Assembly (NCBI GenBank): GCA_040219255.1
Contig: JAVJSW010000001.1
Coordinates: 93,794 to 157,793 of the forward strand
Length of the DNA stretch: 64,000 nucleotides
Reading direction: 5' to 3'
Origin: Sumerlaeia bacterium
GTDB lineage: Bacteria > Sumerlaeota > Sumerlaeia > SLMS01 > JAHLLQ01
The position numbers were made by a program, and so were the translations under genes. The notes under the pieces are model-generated. The model worked only from the letters and a program-made list of their open reading frames with translations, was not told where the DNA came from and ran no database searches. Below, piece by piece: positions 9,125 to 19,410 of this stretch (within the stretch, counting starts at the first letter, position 1; every line of letters begins with the position of its first letter).

Positions 9125-12007
9125 TCAGGGCAGTTTACTGACGATCGATTCGCTGCGGGGCGAGTCCGAATCTTCCGCCCGCGCGGAAAAAGCTTCCGCC
9201 AGAATACGGGCCTGCTCGGCGTTGTGCCGATTCAGTGAACCCACCGAGGGGCTGGCCGCCACATTCCGGCCCACATAGGTCACATGGCCGAACTGCTCGC
9301 GCAGCAGCGGTTCGATGAAGCGCCACGCTCCGCGATTGAGCGGCTCTTCCTGACACCAAACCAGATCCGCGCCCTTCTCCAGGTATGGCCCCACAATGCC
9401 GGCCATCAGCTTCTTGTGGTACGGATAGAACTGCTCGACGCGCACCAGAGCCACATCGTCGACGCCCTGCTCCTCGCGATACGCGGCCAGATCGTAGTAG
9501 ACCTTGCCGCCACAGAGCACCACGCGGCGCACCGCGCCGGGCTTCTTGCCGGTCGGGTCGTCCTTGATTTCCTGGAAGGTGCCGTTCACCAGATCGTCCA
9601 CCGTGGAGACGGCGCGCGGGTGGCGCAGCAGGCTCTTGGGCGACATCAGGATCAGGGGCTTGCGGAAGTCGCGCTTCATCTGGCGCCGCAGAAGATGGAA
9701 GTACTGGGCCGGGGTCGTCGCGTTGCAGACCTGGATATTCTCGTCCGCGCAGAGCGACAGGAACCGGTCGAGCCAGGCGTTGCTGTGCTCCGGGCCCTGG
9801 CCTTCGTAGCCGTGCGGCAGCAGCAGGACGAGGCCACTGCCGCGCCCCCACTTCGATTCGCCGCTGATGATGAACTGATCGATGATGACTTGGGCGCCGT
9901 TGACGAAGTCGCCGAACTGCGCTTCCCAGCAGATCAGCATGTCCGGGTTGTCGAGCGAGTAGCCATAGTCGAAGCCGAGGACGCTGGCTTCCGACAGGGG
10001 GCTGTCGTAACAGCAGAAGCGCGCCTGTTTGCCCGGCCGGACGTTGTTCAGCGGCATGTAGCCTTCGGCCGATTTCGTGTCCCAGATCATCGCGTGGCGC
10101 TGGCTGAAGGTGCCCCGCCGGCTGTCCTGGCCGCTGATGCGAACCGGGATGTTCTCCAGCAGCAGCGAACCGATGGCGAGGCCTTCGCCGGTGGCCCAAT
10201 CGATGGTGCCGCCTTCCGTCGAAACGCCTTCCCATCGCTTGTCGAACACGCCGCGGCGCTTCTTCGGGTCCGAAAGCTTCTTGTGAACGTGGAAGCCTTC
10301 GGGGAATTCGTGCCAGATTTTCGCCACCGCGATCAGATCCTCGCGGCTTACCCGCGTGTCCACCGGATCGAAGGTGTAGCCGCGCTTGAACATGCGCCAG
10401 GTATCGCCCGAGAAAGCCCGCAGCGCCGTCTGAATCTTGGCGTCCTTCGCGCGCTCGTGCGCCGCCGCCAATTCGCTGTCCAACTCCTTCTCCATCGCCT
10501 CGAGCCGATCCATCGGCACGACTTCTTCCTCGATCAGGGTCTTCTTGTAGATCTCATAGGTGGACGGATGGTTCTTGATGGCCTGATACATCTGGGGTTG
10601 GGTGAAGCCAGGCTCGTCGCCTTCGTTGTGACCGAGGCGCCGGTAACACACCAAGTCGATCACCACGTCCTTGTGGAAGCGCTGGCGGAATTCGACGGCG
10701 ATTTCCGCCGCCTGGAGCACCGCGTCCGGGTCGTCGGCGTTCACGTGGAAAATCGGCGCCTGCACCATCTTCGCCACGTCCGTCGGATAGCGCGTCGAGC
10801 GCCCTTCCTCCGGCGAGGTGGTGAAGCCGATCTGGTTGTTGACAATGACGTGGATGGTGCCGCCGGTGGCGTAACCCTTGAGCTGGCTGTAGTTCAGGAT
10901 TTCCGCCACGATGCCCTGGCCCGCGAAGGCCGCGTCGCCGTGGATCAGCAGCGGCATGACCCGCACCCGCTCCATGTCGTTCAGGCGGCGCTGCTTGCCG
11001 CGCACCCGGCCCTGCACGACCGGGTTCACGGCCTCCAGGTGGCTGGGATTGGCGGTCAGGCTCAGGTGAACGTCCTGGCCGTGATAGGTCGTCCAGTCGG
11101 TCGAATAGCCCTTGTGATACTTCACGTCGCCGTCACCGAAGACCTGGCCTTCGGAGTAGTTGTCCTCGAAATCCGAAAAGATTTCCTCATGGCTTTTCTG
11201 CAGGATATTTGCCAGCACGTTCAGCCGCCCGCGGTGCGCCATGCCGAGGACGATCTCCTCGATGCCTTCGAGGCCCGCTTTTTCGACGATGGTGTCGAGG
11301 GTCGGAATCAGGGTCTCGCCACCTTCCAGGCTGAAGCGCTTCTGGCCAACGTAGGTGGTGTGGAGGAACTTCTCGAAAGCCTCGGCTTGGCGGAGACAGC
11401 GCGCCACGCGCAGCTTCTTGCCCGGTGCGGCATCCGTTTTGTTCAGGAACGGCTCCATACGCTTCTGCAGCCAGCGGCGCTCCGGCGTGTTCTGGATGTG
11501 CATGTACTCCACGCCGATGGTCTGACAGTAGATCGTCTTGAGCGAGTCGATGATCGCCCGCAACGTCATGCGCGCCGGACCGAAGAGCAGTTTGTCGGCG
11601 TGGAACTCCATGTCGAGGTGCTCGGGGCCGAGATCGAAGTTCTCGAGGTCGAGCAGCGGGTGCGTTTCACTGTTGATGCGGCCCAGCGGATCGATCCGGG
11701 CGATCAGGTGGCCCAAGTCGCGATAGTGGTAAATGAGCGAGTCGACGCGCGATTGCAGGCGTTCGAGGGCGGAATCGCCCAGCGGTGCGGCGGCGGGAGA
11801 AGCCGCGGCGGTCACCGTCGCGGCAGCCGCGGAGGCGCCTTCCTCCTCCAGCCGCGTTTGACCGAGGTCGAAGCCCTGGAAAAAGGGATGCCAGCTCTGG
11901 TCCACGCTGGAGGGATCGTCCAGCCATTGGCGATAGAGGTGGTCCACGTAGTCGCTGTTCCAGCCATTGACCGAGCCAGTCCAGCCTTGCTGCTCTGTTT
12001 CCTGCAT
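9125..12007 (-). CDS. sucA: 2-oxoglutarate dehydrogenase E1
   Basis: KRFSLEGGE, GMAHRGRLNVL, HGDAAFAGQG, WEAQFGDF and LLLPHGYEGQGPEHS motifs; start at MQETEQ. Confidence 0.96.
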   Translation of the reverse strand: MQETEQQGWTGSVNGWNSDYVDHLYRQWLDDPSSVDQSWHPFFQGFDLGQTRLEEEGASAAAATVTAAASPAAAPLGDSALERLQSRVDSLIYHYRDLGHLIARIDPLGRINSETHPLLDLENFDLGPEHLDMEFHADKLLFGPARMTLRAIIDSLKTIYCQTIGVEYMHIQNTPERRWLQKRMEPFLNKTDAAPGKKLRVARCLRQAEAFEKFLHTTYVGQKRFSLEGGETLIPTLDTIVEKAGLEGIEEIVLGMAHRGRLNVLANILQKSHEEIFSDFEDNYSEGQVFGDGDVKYHKGYSTDWTTYHGQDVHLSLTANPSHLEAVNPVVQGRVRGKQRRLNDMERVRVMPLLIHGDAAFAGQGIVAEILNYSQLKGYATGGTIHVIVNNQIGFTTSPEEGRSTRYPTDVAKMVQAPIFHVNADDPDAVLQAAEIAVEFRQRFHKDVVIDLVCYRRLGHNEGDEPGFTQPQMYQAIKNHPSTYEIYKKTLIEEEVVPMDRLEAMEKELDSELAAAHERAKDAKIQTALRAFSGDTWRMFKRGYTFDPVDTRVSREDLIAVAKIWHEFPEGFHVHKKLSDPKKRRGVFDKRWEGVSTEGGTIDWATGEGLAIGSLLLENIPVRISGQDSRRGTFSQRHAMIWDTKSAEGYMPLNNVRPGKQARFCCYDSPLSEASVLGFDYGYSLDNPDMLICWEAQFGDFVNGAQVIIDQFIISGESKWGRGSGLVLLLPHGYEGQGPEHSNAWLDRFLSLCADENIQVCNATTPAQYFHLLRRQMKRDFRKPLILMSPKSLLRHPRAVSTVDDLVNGTFQEIKDDPTGKKPGAVRRVVLCGGKVYYDLAAYREEQGVDDVALVRVEQFYPYHKKLMAGIVGPYLEKGADLVWCQEEPLNRGAWRFIEPLLREQFGHVTYVGRNVAASPSVGSLNRHNAEQARILAEAFSARAEDSDSPRSESIVSKLP

Positions 12008-14057: not shown

Positions 14058-15010
14058 CCCCGCACCCCCGCCTCTTTCCCAGGACCCTCCATCCGCCCAT
14101 GCCCGCTCGTTTCGCCACGGTTCGATTCCTCACGATCGCCCTCGCTTTTTTCCTAGCTCCCGCCTGCGCCGATTCCCCTTCTACTGCCGATGCACTCGCA
14201 GAGAAAGTGGACGTCGAGGCCCCCATGCAACCCACCGATGAAATCGAAATCCGGCAAGGCGAAACCACCGTGCGGACCGCACCGGCCAGGGGCGCGCTCG
14301 TCACCAGCGTGGTCGTGGACGGCAAGGACCTCCTGACGCTCGACCGCCGGTCGTTCGAAGAAACGCACCGCCACGTGCGCGGCGGCATCCCGATCCTGTT
14401 TCCCTTCAGCGGCGCCCTGAAAGACGGAACGCTGGTGGCCTCGGGAACCCAGATGCCCCAGCACGGCTTCGCCCGAGAGAAAGCCTGGGACGTCGTTTCC
14501 CAATCGGAAAGCGAAATGGTCCTCGGCCTGTCGGACGACGAAGCGACCCGCGCCGTCTATCCCTGGCCCTTCCGCCTGACCTACACGGTGCGGGCGCTGG
14601 ACCGGGGCGTCGAGGTGGTACTGACGGCCAGGAACCTCGGGGATTCGCCGATGCCCACCTCGCCGGGCTGGCACCCGTATTTTCCCCTGCCGGTGGAAGC
14701 CAAACCGGAATTCGCCACCTCCGTCGAGGGCGCGGGCGGCGGCACGGTGACCAACGACCGCGAGATCAACTTCGGCGTGCCCAGCCCCCCCGGCTCCAAG
14801 CTGATGTTCCAACTGCCCGGCACCGGCTTTCTGGAAATGGAATACAGCGAGTCGATGGAGCACCTCCAGATCTGGTCGCTGCCGCGCGGCGCCTTCGTCT
14901 GCGTGGAACCCTGGGACGGCGGCGTGAACGACATCAACACCCCCGGCGCCACCGTGATCGCGCCCGGAGAGATGGCCGAGTGGCGCATGGCCTTCCGCCT
15001 GAATCCCTGA
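14054..15010 (+). CDS. Aldose 1-epimerase / galactose mutarotase-like protein, probably exported
   Basis: RGGIPILFP, HGFAR, GWHPYF and FVCVEPW motifs; hydrophobic leader ending LAPAC; start may be 14099. Confidence 0.85.
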   Translation: MTPHPRLFPRTLHPPMPARFATVRFLTIALAFFLAPACADSPSTADALAEKVDVEAPMQPTDEIEIRQGETTVRTAPARGALVTSVVVDGKDLLTLDRRSFEETHRHVRGGIPILFPFSGALKDGTLVASGTQMPQHGFAREKAWDVVSQSESEMVLGLSDDEATRAVYPWPFRLTYTVRALDRGVEVVLTARNLGDSPMPTSPGWHPYFPLPVEAKPEFATSVEGAGGGTVTNDREINFGVPSPPGSKLMFQLPGTGFLEMEYSESMEHLQIWSLPRGAFVCVEPWDGGVNDINTPGATVIAPGEMAEWRMAFRLNP

Positions 15011-15068
15011 GGTCCTGGGCGGACTCATCAAGGCTCCACTCGACTGTTTTGTGAAGACGTGTCGAAAG

Positions 15069-15790
15069 CTACTGAACCTGCATCATGCTCTTGCGCAGTT
15101 GGCGGATGTTTTCGCGCACGCCACCTTTGCCATAGACCGACGAGCCGGCCACCAGGATGTCGGCTCCGGCGGCGACCGCCAGGTGCGCCGTGGAGGGATC
15201 GATGCCGCCATCGACCTGGAGCAGATAGTTCAGCCCGATCTCCTCGCGCAGCAGCACCAGCTCGCGTACCTTGTTCAACGTGTGCGGGATCAGTCTCTGG
15301 CCACCGAAGCCCGGCTCGACGGTCATCACCAGCACCATGTCGGCGTCCGGCAGGCAATCGCGGATGGCGGACACGGGCGTGTCCGGTTTGATGGAAATGC
15401 CGGCCTGCACGCCTGCGGCCTTGATGTCGCGCAGAAGCCGGGGCGACTCGTCTCGGCCCGCCGCTTCCACGTGAAAGGTGATGTGGTTGGCGCCGGCTTC
15501 GACGAACCGTTCGAAGTAGCGGCGGGGTTCGGAAATCATCAGGTGCACGTCGAAAAACAGATTCGGATCGAGGGGCCGGATGTTGCCGATGACCGCGGGG
15601 CCGAAGCTGATGTTGGGCACGAAATGGCCGTCCATCACGTCGAGATGAAGCCAGCGCACGGAGAGACCCTTGAGGGGCTTGACCGCGTCCTCGAGGCAGG
15701 AGAAATCCGCCGCGAGCAAGGACGGGGCGATGCGCACTCCGGTGCCGCGGCGCGACACCGATCCGTTCCCTTTGGCGGGATCGTTCATCA
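15069..15790 (-). CDS. rpe: Ribulose-phosphate 3-epimerase
   Basis: IAPSLLAADF, HLDVMDGHFVPN, DVHLMI, MTVEPGFGGQ and VDGGI motifs; start uncertain. Confidence 0.94.
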
Positions 15791-16048
15791 TCTTCACATG
15801 GCTCGAAGAACTGGCCTTACGCGGCACGATACAATAACCTCCCCGCTCCCTCGCTCCTGGCCGGATGAGGGGCGCTGCGTTCGTCGACGCTTGAACGCCC
15901 GGCAATGTGCCCGGACAGCCTCGGAAGTGCAAGGGAAGGATGGGGGATCAGGGTGGTCCTCGCCATCGTGTCTAACCCAAACAACGCGGGGTCTCTCCAC
16001 AGCGGCCCCGGCTTTTGCGGAACCGCCGAAAATCTTCCGCCAACCCGT

Positions 16049-16570
16049 CTAATCGGGGACGGAGCATGCCAGCTCCCGGAAAAAGGGCTGGAGAAAATCC
16101 CGTCCCTCCGGGGGCAAGCGGCGATTGACCGACTCCTCGAGGCGCAAGAACGACGCCTGCATGACGCGCAGCTCCTGAAAGCTGCATTGCTGTGTCATAA
16201 TCTGCTGAAGCCAGAACAACAGGTTATTGCGGAACAATTCCGGGTTGCCCAGCAACGCACACAAACACAGATGCCGCAGAACCGTGCCGAACCCTTGACC
16301 GCAAGGGCAAGTTCCCTGACACGCCAACTCGCACGACGCCGCCATCGGACATTCGACCTCCTTCTCGATCGCGTCGAGCGACGCGAAGACATGGTCGACG
16401 GTCCGGCAGGCCAGGTCGAGTTCCGGATGATCGCGGCGCAACTCCTCCAGCTCCTCGTGGCTCGGCACCGCGACCTGGGGCGCGAGGCGCAGCAGAAGGC
16501 GATTTCGTTCCTTCGCCACTTCAGCGGAACCGCAAGCCGCTTCCCTCTCGAATTCCGTTAATTCAGACAT
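16049..16570 (-). CDS. Phycobiliprotein-like globin, Cys-rich
   Basis: PSHEELEEL, C-GQGFGTVLRHLCLCALLGNPELF..LLFWLQQIM and RLPPEGRDFLQPFF align by eye with phycobiliprotein-type globin helices; 11 Cys; paralogue of the upstream gene. Confidence 0.65.
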   Translation of the reverse strand: MSELTEFEREAACGSAEVAKERNRLLLRLAPQVAVPSHEELEELRRDHPELDLACRTVDHVFASLDAIEKEVECPMAASCELACQGTCPCGQGFGTVLRHLCLCALLGNPELFRNNLLFWLQQIMTQQCSFQELRVMQASFLRLEESVNRRLPPEGRDFLQPFFRELACSVPD

Positions 16571-16636
16571 TGAGACACGTCCGTTCTAGTGGGCGGAAGG
16601 AAGACAGGAAGAGAGGAAGAGAGGAAGGCGGGGCGT

Positions 16637-17140
16637 TCAGTGAGCGAACTCGTTGCGACAAATCACGGCGACCATGTCGTCGAGGTAGGGTTCGATGGCG
16701 TTCCTGGCTTCGGGCGTAAGCCGCGACACGACGAGTTGACGCAGGACGCTGAAGGCCGCCACGACGACCGGATCGAGGCGCGCGAAGCCGGCGGCGTCGA
16801 GCACCTGGCGCATCCAGTAGAGACAGTGGCGCTGAAGCAGCGCGCGGTCGTCCAGGACCATGGTCAGCACAACGGAGCGAAGCAGGCGGGTCATGTCGGC
16901 TGCCAATGTGTCCTCCGCGTCTGCGCCGAATCGCTCTTCCATTTCCGGATAAACGCGGCAGACCAGATGGGCGGCCTGCCTCGTAATGGCATCGGCCCCG
17001 ATCAGAACGTCAGCGGCAGCCTCGTAAACGGGTTCCCGTTCGGGTTGGAAGGCCCGGAGCGACTCGAGGTCGCCGGGTGCAAGGTCTGGCGCGACATCGC
17101 CCAATTGGCGCAGGTAGGGCAGTAAACACAAGTAGCTCAT
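16637..17140 (-). CDS. Phycobiliprotein-like globin (allophycocyanin/BBAG-like fold)
   Basis: [13 protein letters not shown] ~ ApcA [33 protein letters not shown] ~ [34 protein letters not shown] ~ LSGEDAAEAGAYFD; 167 aa; RBS agaaggt. Confidence 0.75.
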   Translation of the reverse strand: [167 protein letters not shown]

Positions 17141-17335
17141 GGAAAGCTTACCTTCTCAACGATCTGGGTGGCCTCGACGGTGCGAGGGCGATCGACCTTC
17201 TGAAGGCAGACCTGAAGAATCCGGGGGTATGGTTTCCCAACGGAATCCCCAAAAAAAATCAAAACCAATTACGAAACCTGAATGAAAAACTCAAGCGGGC
17301 ACCTCCGCGGAAGTTCACACTCGGCTCGACCAGCT

Positions 17336-17364
17336 ACTGTCTAGAATTTCGGGATGGTTGTCAA
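17336..17364 (-). promoter_or_regulatory. Putative sigma70 promoter of the globin pair (TTGACA-N17-GACAGT)
   Basis: Perfect -35 and 17-nt spacer; the -10 hexamer is identical to that upstream of the tRNA operon. Confidence 0.55.
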
Positions 17365-17528
17365 GGTTTCCGTTTTCGCGAAGATTACGCATCATCCGAT
17401 TCGCCGCCGGAAATTGAACGATCTCCAGATGAAAATATTTCGCCCCGCAGGTTGTCCCGGCAAAGAGGAACTCTTAATCCCGTAAGCGGCAAGAGGTGGC
17501 GAAATCGTAAGGGGGAAGATCCCGGGGC

Positions 17529-18128
17529 TCAGGCCTCCCGGGGCCGTTCGCCGCCTTCGTTGAGCTTGCCGACCGCTTCGAGGGTGGCGGGGCTGTCGGC
17601 GGTGCCGGCCTTGGCCGCGTAGCCGAACATGATTGTGGAGAAGCCCATGAAGAGCGAATTGATGCCCACCAGCGCGGCGATCGTGGCCAAGGGCTGCATC
17701 GCCAGAACCATCCAGATCAGTGTGGCCAGAATCAGCGAGACGACGCCGCTGAGCAACAGCCAGATCCAGGGCGCCCGTTGCCGCAGCCGAATGGCCAGCA
17801 TCAGCGTGATGATCCCGTTGAGCGTCAGGTAGAGCCCGACGAGCGTTGTCGCCGTCCAGTATTGACTGGTCGGATGGACGAGGATCGTGGCGCCGAAGAG
17901 GATGACGACAAGGGCGGAGAGCATGGAGATGACAAGGCCGCCGAGTTCGCGGGACTTGAGCGCGTAGGCGATCTGCAGCGCACCCGTCAGGATGAACAGC
18001 ACGCCCAGCAAGGGCTCGATGGCGCTGGGCATCGCCATCGGCAGACCGAAGCACAGGGCTCCGAACAAAACGTGAATGCACCCGATGATGACGAAGAGCA
18101 TCCAGATGCGTTGCAGTGCGAAAGTCAT
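17529..18128 (-). CDS. HdeD/DUF308 family membrane protein
   Basis: Six hydrophobic helices with repeated L.G..FI..G..QI / W.WLLLSG pattern and LVGINSLF.G. Confidence 0.8.
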   Translation of the reverse strand: MTFALQRIWMLFVIIGCIHVLFGALCFGLPMAMPSAIEPLLGVLFILTGALQIAYALKSRELGGLVISMLSALVVILFGATILVHPTSQYWTATTLVGLYLTLNGIITLMLAIRLRQRAPWIWLLLSGVVSLILATLIWMVLAMQPLATIAALVGINSLFMGFSTIMFGYAAKAGTADSPATLEAVGKLNEGGERPREA

Positions 18129-18179
18129 AAGCCGAACCTCCGTTCGATCGACAAGAAGGGAAAAAGGGGCGGGCGGTGC

Positions 18180-18896
18180 TCAGCGATCGGACGGGAAGCC
18201 GATGCCCGGGCCGAACATGAAGAGGTCGCCATTGGATTGGGTGCCATTGGTCGGGTCGTAATGAACCGGAAAGGACACCGAATTGTCGTTCACCACACCG
18301 CCGGTGTCGGTCTTGCGGCCGAAACCGAAGTCGCGGTCGGCGTCCGGCCCGGGGCTGGCGATCAGCCAGAGGGCGTTGTTGTTCTCCCGCGGGGTGCCGA
18401 CAAAGGTGCCGCCTTCGCGAAGGGACTCGTACACGTAGCCGACGAATTGGGTCTGGTTGACGCCGTTGAAAATCAGGCTGTTCTGCTCGTCATTCGAGTA
18501 CATATAGGCCCGGTTCGGCGGCAGACAGGTGCCGGTTTCCGTCGGCGTGGGGAAAATGTCGAGGAAGACCACGTTGAGGTAGGCGACCGGGGTGGTGAGG
18601 CGGCGGCTGAGAAATCCGCGGCCCGGGCCATTGGGCCTCAGGCTCCAGCTGTCGCACTCGGTGGGAATGGGCCAGCGGTCCGCCGGGGGATAAATGCTCC
18701 AGTCGACCCGATAGGCCTCGACCCCGGTGGAGGCCGAGCGCGCGTCCGCCCGGAAGCGCGCAACCTTCGACCGCGTCAGAGCCTCGATATAGTTGGGCAC
18801 GGCGATCGCCGCCATGATCCCGATGATGGCGACGACGATAATAAGCTCGATCAGAGTGAAGCCACGGGAGAATCGTTTGGTAAGCGGTTGGCCCAT
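18180..18896 (-). CDS. Prepilin-type N-terminal cleavage/methylation protein (GspG-like pseudopilin)
   Basis: RG|FTLIELIIVVAIIGIMAAIAVPNY class III signal; C-terminal SPGPD and YDPTNGTQSNGDL. Confidence 0.9.
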   Translation of the reverse strand: MGQPLTKRFSRGFTLIELIIVVAIIGIMAAIAVPNYIEALTRSKVARFRADARSASTGVEAYRVDWSIYPPADRWPIPTECDSWSLRPNGPGRGFLSRRLTTPVAYLNVVFLDIFPTPTETGTCLPPNRAYMYSNDEQNSLIFNGVNQTQFVGYVYESLREGGTFVGTPRENNNALWLIASPGPDADRDFGFGRKTDTGGVVNDNSVSFPVHYDPTNGTQSNGDLFMFGPGIGFPSDR

Positions 18897-19218: not shown

Positions 19219-19295
19219 TGGCGGGAGCGACGAGACTTGAACTCGCGACCTCCGGCGTGACAGGCCGGCGCTCTAACCGACTGAGCTACGCCCCC
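19219..19295 (-). tRNA. tRNA-Asp(GTC)
   Basis: Cloverleaf GGGGGCGTAGCTCAGTCGGTTAGAGC...CCGGC-CT-GTC-AC-GCCGG...GTTCAAGTC...CGCTCCCG-CCA. Confidence 0.97.
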
Positions 19296-19333
19296 GCAGG
19301 TTTGAAAACGGTGCTCTGATCTCTCGGATCGGG

Positions 19334-19410
19334 TGGTGGGCGGACCGGGATTCGAACCTGGGACCCCCAGCTTGTAAGGCTGGTGCTCTAACCAACTGAG
19401 CTACCCGCCC
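19334..19410 (-). tRNA. tRNA-Val(TAC)
   Basis: Cloverleaf GGGCGGGTAGCTCAGTTGGTTAGAGC...CCAGC-CT-TAC-AA-GCTGG...GTTCGAATC...TCCGCCCA-CCA. Confidence 0.97.

Follow-up and report, generated by a model that had tools for sequence, protein, structure and literature searches.

Two strongly diverged globins of the phycobiliprotein and BBAG family encoded apart from the bilin module of a Sumerlaeota bacterium

Two adjacent genes, here called A and B, in a 64,000-nucleotide window (the whole stretch of DNA that was analysed) of contig JAVJSW010000001.1 from a Sumerlaeia bacterium of the phylum Sumerlaeota are, as judged from their sequences, real genes for two members, both strongly diverged, of the bilin-binding globin family, which comprises the phycobiliproteins and the bilin biosynthesis-associated globins (BBAGs). 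We consider it probable, at roughly 60%, that the two are dispersed accessory globins belonging to a bilin module of the pre-PcyA type, which has its core on another contig of the same genome. By sequence comparison, A is a globin of the phycobiliprotein/BBAG family with the G2-type accessory globins as its nearest relatives (G1, G2 and G3 are labels coined in this analysis for three globins found beside the module in other records), while B belongs to the same family as a very diverged, cysteine-rich protein, of which a profile recognises only the C-terminal half.

The term BBAG is used in the texts of PMC10151467 (Rockwell, Martin and Lagarias, 2023), PMC13446030 and PMC11480375. The text of PMC10151467 describes bilin-binding globins of heterotrophs as the stock of the phycobiliproteins, the exact origin of which it calls unclear, and gives the functions of BBAGs as unknown; BBAG-2 proteins are said there to bind biliverdin. 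According to the same text, the pre-1 and pre-3 clusters around pre-PcyA comprise genes for an Fe-S protein, for two V4R proteins and for 'one or two' globin homologues, in some cases with a heme oxygenase, and members of pre-1 clusters are sometimes found at a distance.

Family membership of A and B

A matches the Pfam family PF00502 (Phycobilisome) with 50.7 bits (E 2.5e-13) against a cut-off of 22.2, residues 21-157 being aligned with profile positions 14-152 of 155. No other Pfam family is reached at E ≤ 10, and thus the better match to RsbRD_N or protoglobin sensors, which an earlier note on this DNA had named as grounds to abandon the assignment, is not seen for A. Among PDB sequences phmmer retrieves 17 distinct matches at E ≤ 10, of which 15 are phycobiliproteins and 2 annexin; the best, and the sole one below 0.01, is chain 9v7j_s (E 0.0026), and A can be aligned almost end to end with Apc and Cpc chains. 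A profile made from 23 relatives, neither A nor B among them, is matched by A in hhalign with 99.5% probability (E 1e-22, residues 10-164), and the profile of the whole set including the relatives (A3) collects 200 PDB sequences at E ≤ 1, with 8ddy_A as the best (2.4e-15) and with phycobiliproteins only among the 60 listed of these 200. The NCBIfam equivalogs ApcA and CpeA score A with 16.7 bits (cut-off 270) and 16.6 bits (cut-off 225), so far under the cut-offs that A is not an Apc, Cpc or Cpe.

Searched against 1.84 billion representatives, A finds 20 proteins at E ≤ 1e-3, headed by a 96% identical copy and followed by four G2-type proteins (29-31% identity) and then by G3-, G1- and BBAG-like proteins. 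Cys61 of A falls on a position that is invariant in the four G2 proteins; presumably it lies near the second attachment Cys of phycoerythrin beta chains, a placement that is approximate, being a hand count on the 9v7j_s alignment.

The link of B to the family runs through A and through the relatives. BLASTP aligns B with A at 43.5 bits (E 1e-10, 24% identity, 145 columns), and in a search of the own genome with B the sole non-self match at E < 0.1 is A (E 4.5e-6). On its own B reaches no Pfam family at E ≤ 10, PF00502 with its cut-off included, no PDB sequence at E ≤ 10 and no NCBIfam family. Against the profile of the 23 relatives, hhalign recovers B with 96.7% probability (E 4e-10) over residues 89-166 only, residues 1-88 being without a match (probability 0.15%), and the N-terminal parts of B and A share a weak likeness (33% over 48 residues, E 0.011 in a single comparison). 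Feature matches of B in the ESM Atlas are three PF00502 clusters (0.90, 0.88 and 0.87). The Atlas model of B is moderately confident, with a predicted template-modelling (TM) score, pTM, of 0.69 and a predicted local distance difference test value, pLDDT, of 0.72, and a structure search of the Atlas with B gives nothing over TM 0.41.

In composition B stands out by 11 Cys in 173 residues (6.4%), compared with a median of 1.8% across 44 family rows, a composition unseen in the other 42 rows; seven of the cysteines form the cluster given in Table 1, and all 11 are retained in P0021, a 97% identical protein of a second strain. The earlier note had described two co-oriented open reading frames (ORFs) of about 170 amino acids (aa), 66 bp apart, paralogous to each other and similar to phycobiliproteins by eye, a description which the ORF positions and the matches given here bear out for both genes, for B by way of its C-terminal half.

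The bilin-attachment site

The column of the bilin-attachment motif CxRD was read from an alignment of 25 sequences (A, B and the 23 relatives). It holds LAAD in A and CGQG in B, in agreement with what had been read from the letters, and the HMMER alignment of A to PDB chain 9v7j_s aligns D82 of A with the Asp of C-I-R-D. This Asp is present in all of the 23 relatives and the Arg in nearly all (at least 90%), and the five that are Cys-less retain Arg-Asp or Glu-Asp. The CXRD motif with attachment Cys by which BBAGs of types 1 and 3 are recognised is found neither in A nor in B.

In phycobiliproteins the Cys of the motif forms the thioether with the bilin, and the Asp is in contact with the nitrogens of the central pyrroles and the Arg with a propionate. 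Given these roles, A would lack covalent attachment at the CxRD site but retain a key residue of the pocket, and B would lack the pocket residues with the Cys retained.

The bilin module elsewhere in the genome

The own genome (G000; 5.35 Mb in 83 contigs, 92% complete) carries another PF00502 gene on contig C61 (65.7 bits), the product of which has the motif CYRD. It is part of a module in the order 2Fe-2S protein (Fer2, 34.9 bits), V4R, small ORF, CYRD globin, V4R (the two V4R with 55 and 35 bits, the genome having no further V4R match), a kinase of the Ser/Thr type (120.8 bits), a pair of MinD/ParA-like P-loop proteins (24.8 and 25.0 bits, slightly short of the cut-off of 25.4) and bilin reductase (Fe_bilin_red, 84.2 bits). 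Downstream of the reductase gene follows a convergent frame, by eye an ABC-transporter permease, and no extra globins stand beside the module. A heme oxygenase (59.5 bits) is encoded on contig C64. From these genes, heme oxygenase and ferredoxin-dependent bilin reductase (FDBR), the host is predicted to be able to make biliverdin and to reduce it.

The genome search that the earlier note had recommended, for ho1, bilin reductase, V4R and lyase genes, thus finds the first three on C64 and C61, and CpeS/CpeT lyases (PF09367, PF06206) are not found. Neither the reaction centres PF00124 and PF00223 nor the phytochrome PHY domain PF00360 are matched in the own genome at E ≤ 0.01, and linker polypeptides (PF00427) are found in none of the 11 genomes of the family, the own one included; a non-photosynthetic host, as had been supposed, agrees with the missing reaction centres in a genome of this completeness. 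The description of the pair as stand-alone fares differently. Locally it is correct, as no V4R, ferredoxin or bilin reductase gene flanks A and B (Pfam of the neighbouring genes), and the linkage to a heme oxygenase or bilin reductase cluster that characterises BBAGs is not present; genome-wide it does not hold, because the genome carries the module on C61 and the heme oxygenase on C64.

As an observation on the module itself, the kinase and the two MinD/ParA-like P-loop genes that separate the second V4R gene from the reductase gene are kept in the own genome (L025, C61 7171-10484), in the related genome G005 and in the metagenome contig L048, and a small conserved ORF between the first V4R gene and the BBAG gene is present in G000, G024 and L048. 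No mention of the kinase, the P-loop genes or the small ORF was found in the text of PMC10151467.

Accessory globins beside the module in other records

Two other records have extra globins of this kind inside the module. G005, a metagenome-assembled genome of Candidatus Sumerlaeia from the same family, has its bilin module on contig C80 in the order BBAG, V4R, kinase, two P-loop, FDBR (77.9 bits), followed by three PF00502 globins: G3 with 159 aa and CLRD (50.1 bits), G2 with CRRD (32.3 bits) and G1 with 224 aa, an N-terminal extension and CGRD (35.5 bits). The next gene past the trio is by eye a phosphoglycerate kinase. The metagenome contig L048 shows G3, G2, G1, Fer2, V4R, small ORF, BBAG, V4R, kinase, two P-loop and FDBR (69.9 bits), that is, the same order of the trio at the other end of the module.

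About 4-5 lineages of each G type are present among the 1.84 billion representatives, and PF00502 matches occur in 12 of the 75 genomes of the phylum that were searched. An alignment-based locus search with a 5-row alignment leads to the contig of G005 only among genome contigs and to L048 only among metagenome contigs; a 15-row alignment of accessory globins recovers 5 proteins among 8000 scored candidates, a number that is unusable as a measure of prevalence.

Other PF00502 proteins came up alongside. A separate globin system of the phylum, seen in G008 (L041, contig C16, 208-678 and 796-3342, minus strand) and similarly in G003, G013, G016 and G020 (L031, L034, L035, L038, L042), combines a Cys-less PF00502 globin of about 156 aa (53.3 bits), with KTARD or KTLRD replacing CxRD, with an adjacent long protein that matches the family profile and is in G008 an 848-aa ORF inside a 973-aa open frame; the 848-aa protein has one PF00502 stretch (Pfam, 42.1 bits; E 1.4e-21 with the hidden Markov model of this analysis). 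A photoglobin-like protein of G072 (L037, contig C10, 793-1872, minus strand) joins a weak N-terminal PF00502 match (18.6 bits) to B12-binding domains (58.1 and 78 bits). On plasmid pREC3 of Acaryochloris marina MBIC10699, a cyanobacterial BBAG cluster (L045, 17148-20456) consists of V4R, a hypothetical protein (weak PF00502, 20.9 bits), V4R, 2Fe-2S and a globin annotated 'allophycocyanin' (47.7 bits).

Trees and relation to phycobiliproteins

In a 39-row tree, a set of 17 accessory rows, made up of the G1-G3 types and of A and B with their near-copies, is separated from the canonical BBAG-like rows (support 95/98, starred), A and B are joined (94/90), and this pair is sister to G2 (88/94). 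When B is omitted, A still goes with G2 (approximate likelihood-ratio test, aLRT, 92) and the accessory set is recovered (98, starred). Seven of the tree rows, taken from ORFs of relatives with over-long starts, were trimmed N-terminally, and two Acaryochloris cluster globins with long branches were dropped from the trees without A or without B and kept in the 39- and 44-row trees. B may be a duplicate of A, as the tree with both present joins them, but B relocates in the absence of A and scores higher with canonical BBAGs.

The 44-row tree adds two alpha and two beta chains of phycocyanin, all from one organism (Acaryochloris plasmid pREB3), and as outgroup the photoglobin-like G072 protein cut to its first 175 residues. 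In this maximum-likelihood (ML) tree the four phycocyanin subunits fall outside all 39 BBAG-like rows, A and B included (87/91, not starred). A and B share with G1-G3 and the Sumerlaeota BBAGs a group of 25 rows whose branching order is not resolved (81/90) and within which G1 (99/100, starred), G3 (99/94, starred) and G2 (86/96) are clades. A special closeness of A and B to phycobiliproteins or to their origin, as the earlier note had suggested, is not supported by these sequence comparisons, although the approximately unbiased (AU) test does not reject a clade of A and B with the phycocyanins (p 0.25, log-likelihood difference 6.2).

Conservation and selection

A second strain is represented by P0001, 96% identical to A, and by P0021, the counterpart of B, each from one 2411-base contig, and contigs of sequencing run X1 show the same six residue changes per gene. 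Both reading frames are intact in this strain. Compared with the X1 strain, A has 10 synonymous changes over 125.7 sites and 6 non-synonymous ones over 375.3, which gives a pN/pS of about 0.2; A is under purifying selection and is taken to be maintained. For B the contigs show 9-10 differences in all, with a ratio of about 0.5-0.6 if the unlisted ones are synonymous, and of the 6 replacements 5 are BLASTP positives and none is at a Cys; we read this as B being either weakly constrained or in the course of a change of function. All of these counts are tiny and come from contigs with a depth of at most 5.4, where single errors are possible, and runs X1-X3 are DNA contigs from one study, of which X2 and X3 cover little of the pair. 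The G+C content at third codon positions (GC3) is 0.77 and 0.75 in the pair, and the distribution of G+C over the codon positions is coding-like.

Divergence between the strains is uneven along the locus. It amounts to 2 of about 547 covered bases in rpe, to about 2% in B and to about 4% of the covered bases in A. The 16 differences of A to the X1 strain are confined to 16658-16871, and the upstream spacer at 17391-17520 has at least 15 substitutions and 2 indels. Recombination or relaxed constraint in the stretch 15000-18200 may account for this pattern.

Locus and neighbouring genes

The features of the locus and the two accessory trios are collected in Table 1. The region upstream of A is the probable promoter region of the pair, and an AAGG-containing stretch about 10 nt 5' of the ATG of A was read by eye. 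No sigma-70-type consensus site is found in 14900-18300, the 2 terminator-like sites there are not above shuffled sequences (mean 3.3), and no Rfam family exceeds its threshold in 15900-17700, the sole match at E ≤ 1 having 18.1 bits against a gathering score of 61. No repeats of note surround the pair.

Table 1. Positions of genes A and B, their motifs and surroundings in the window, and of the accessory globin trios in two other records
Feature	Coordinates	Strand	Basis and remarks
Gene A, 167-aa globin	16637..17140	minus	ORF with ATG start; PF00502 match
Gene B, 173-aa diverged Cys-rich globin	16049..16570	minus	ORF with ATG start; BLASTP match to A
A-B spacer, 66 bp	16571..16636	minus	between the two ORFs; no terminator-like site reported inside
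Intergenic region upstream of A, 388 bp	17141..17528	minus	G+C 0.55, compared with 0.60-0.66 around it
A residues 79-82, LAAD in the CxRD column	16895..16906	minus	Cys and Arg lost, Asp kept; alignments and translation check
B residues 90-93, CGQG in the CxRD column	16292..16303	minus	Cys kept, Arg and Asp lost; alignments and translation check
B cysteine cluster, residues 74-104: C74-x5-C80-x3-C84-x3-C88-x-C90 ... C102-x-C104	16259..16351	minus	translation check
tRNA-Asp (gtc) and tRNA-Val (tac)	19219-19410	minus	2 kb upstream of the pair
G005 globin trio G3-G2-G1	L024 (C80) 10112-11777	minus	after the reductase gene
Metagenome globin trio G3-G2-G1	L048 9315-11016	plus	before the Fe-S gene

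Downstream of B, after a gap of at least 116 bp, lies rpe (ribulose-phosphate 3-epimerase, PF00834, 225.9 bits), and upstream of A, beyond the 388-bp spacer, a gene for a DUF308 membrane protein (54.2 bits), which we take to be of the HdeD family, so that the neighbours are those which the earlier note had given. Farther off are a pilin-like protein, an aldose epimerase and a kinase of the FHA-Ser/Thr type (Pfam); no B12-binding or STAS partner gene stands beside A and B by Pfam of the neighbouring genes. Between the two tRNA genes and rpe there are just the pilin-like gene, the DUF308 gene, A and B. A genomic island or transfer was considered and set aside, as the G+C of the pair (0.60-0.64) is similar to the flanks and, apart from the nearby tRNA genes, no sign of an island was seen. 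The DUF308 protein is recovered with the query from the window in 2 of the 11 family genomes, the match in G005 being weak. In 10 of 10 family genomes rpe is found without any of the other 10 genes of the window within 1.5 kb, a synteny result that is uninformative on insertion.

Weighing the explanations

If A and B are dispersed accessory globins of the bilin module, the pair would have been relocated from the module as an accessory-globin set and would work with the bilin provided by the heme oxygenase and the reductase, acting on or reporting this same bilin and not forming an independent pigment system. With its pocket Asp and the G2-specific Cys61, A might at best retain a bilin that lacks the canonical thioether link. 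B, in which the invariant Asp is gone and a Cys-lined segment takes the place of the attachment helix, probably has no canonical bilin binding, and may be a partner or regulatory subunit or provide a thiol, metal or redox site.

A number of observations weigh against this explanation. A and B are unlinked to the module though linkage defines BBAGs, so that the functional tie is a putative one. Globins of the accessory type are present in only 2 of the 75 phylum genomes (G000 and G005), word-indexed searches with A and B return just near-identical copies and nothing A- or B-like outside one near-identical strain, and there is no comparative support for a conserved function of the two. The position of B is unstable: in the tree without A it shifts beside a canonical BBAG (aLRT 80), its branch in the 39-row tree measures 2.9 changes per column, and with phmmer its highest non-self scores go to two Sumerlaeota BBAGs of the canonical kind (39.4 and 38.4 bits), a G2 protein and A following with 32.3 and 29.7 bits. 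The 8 listed changes of B against the X1 strain comprise 2 synonymous and 6 non-synonymous ones, and GC3 of both genes is slightly under that of the neighbours (0.81-0.87). With few signs of constraint, the long branch and an N-terminal half that is unrecognisable, B could be drifting.

The proposal of the earlier note, an alpha/beta-like heterodimer independent of any bilin cluster, repurposed as a pigment, redox or metal sensor or store and placed near the root of the phycobiliproteins, appears unlikely. It draws on the tandem, co-oriented genes with 66 bp between them, on the complementary losses in CxRD with Asp in A and Cys in B, on the 11-Cys cluster of B, on the weak N-terminal likeness of A and B, which fits a local duplication, and on the AU test. 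Against it, the genome does hold a bilin module and a heme oxygenase, A is nested with the G2-type globins, whose genes belong to such clusters in two other records, the ML tree sets the four phycocyanin subunits outside the 39 BBAG-like rows, and the scores of A for ApcA and CpeA are a small fraction of the cut-offs.

A similarly low probability is given to the idea that A and B are relaxed relics, which lost the attachment motif after leaving the module and are drifting, B furthest, with no or residual function. The excess of non-synonymous among the listed changes of B would be expected from it, as would the loss in B of the Asp invariant in the 23 relatives and of the near-invariant Arg, the long branch, the odd composition, the N-terminal half without profile match, the failure of B to match Pfam or PDB sequences, the slightly lowered GC3 and the confinement to one species-level lineage. 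It has to face two intact frames in two strains, the pN/pS of A, conservative replacements in B (5/6 BLASTP positives) with 11/11 Cys kept and a model of B of moderate confidence, and the counts from which it argues are very small, with single errors possible at the contig depth reached.

Still less probable is a more specific version of a heterodimer with divided labour, in which A would hold a bilin in non-thioether fashion by way of the Asp and Cys61 and B would offer a Cys-lined metal, Fe-S or thiol-redox site made up of C74, C80, C84, C88, C90, C102 and C104. Were it true, the pair would be a bilin- or redox-coupled sensor on the phycobiliprotein fold in a heterotroph, and the cluster BBAG would have G1-G3, A and B as its heteromeric partners, in a non-photosynthetic parallel to the alpha/beta assembly.

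A switch of one or both proteins to heme or another cofactor, as in RsbR or photoglobin sensor globins, is the least probable of these explanations. The loss of CxRD in both, the 5 Cys-less proteins among the 23 relatives and the lack of CXRD in BBAG-2 and photoglobins according to the text of PMC10151467 are opposed by PF00502 as the only Pfam family of A and none for B at E ≤ 10, by the pocket Asp that A retains and by the absence of a B12-binding or other partner gene beside the pair.

Relation to known systems and meaning

As dispersed accessory globins, A and B share with BBAG-1 and BBAG-3 the PF00502 family, a heterotrophic host and a genome that has the cluster and a heme oxygenase; they differ by their position away from the cluster, by the accessory clade with G1-G3 in which A is found and which is split from the cluster globin (95/98, starred), and, for B, by the 11-Cys composition. 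The G3-G2-G1 trio of G005 and L048 comes closer, as it contains in G2 the nearest kin of A, with a shared Cys, and has tandem, co-oriented genes, but the trio is inside the module and all its members have a CxRD motif (CLRD, CRRD, CGRD), whereas the present genome has two such globins, elsewhere and with the motif degenerate. BBAG-2 and photoglobins resemble the pair as wider-family globins without CXRD, as stated in the text of PMC10151467; theirs are paired with B12-binding proteins or domains, unlike A and B. Like the alpha/beta pairs of Apc, Cpc and Cpe, A and B are adjacent genes for two paralogues of about 165-175 aa from the same fold family. In contrast to those pairs, neither reaction centres nor CpeS/CpeT lyases nor linkers are found in the host of A and B, A is without the attachment Cys and B without Arg and Asp, and the ML tree does not join A and B with the phycocyanins, though by the AU test such a clade is not rejected.

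Sumerlaeota are not mentioned in the BBAG and pre-PcyA literature that was searched, the string 'Sumerlae' being absent from the text of PMC13446030, and in the main texts on BBAGs (PMC10151467, PMC13446030) no three-globin block and no motif-less unlinked copies were found, the supplements, which may show them, lying outside this search. To this extent it is new that a bilin-globin system is present in Sumerlaeota, that some pre-PcyA modules have, next to the canonical BBAG, as many as three additional globins from a clade of their own, in the constant order G3-G2-G1, and that one lineage appears to have moved two such globins off the module, with the canonical attachment motif stripped and one of the two gaining 11 Cys. 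Should A and B be drifting relics, the locus would be an ordinary one. If the accessory globins assemble together or with the BBAG, they would make a tractable model for multi-subunit biliproteins before their photosynthetic use.

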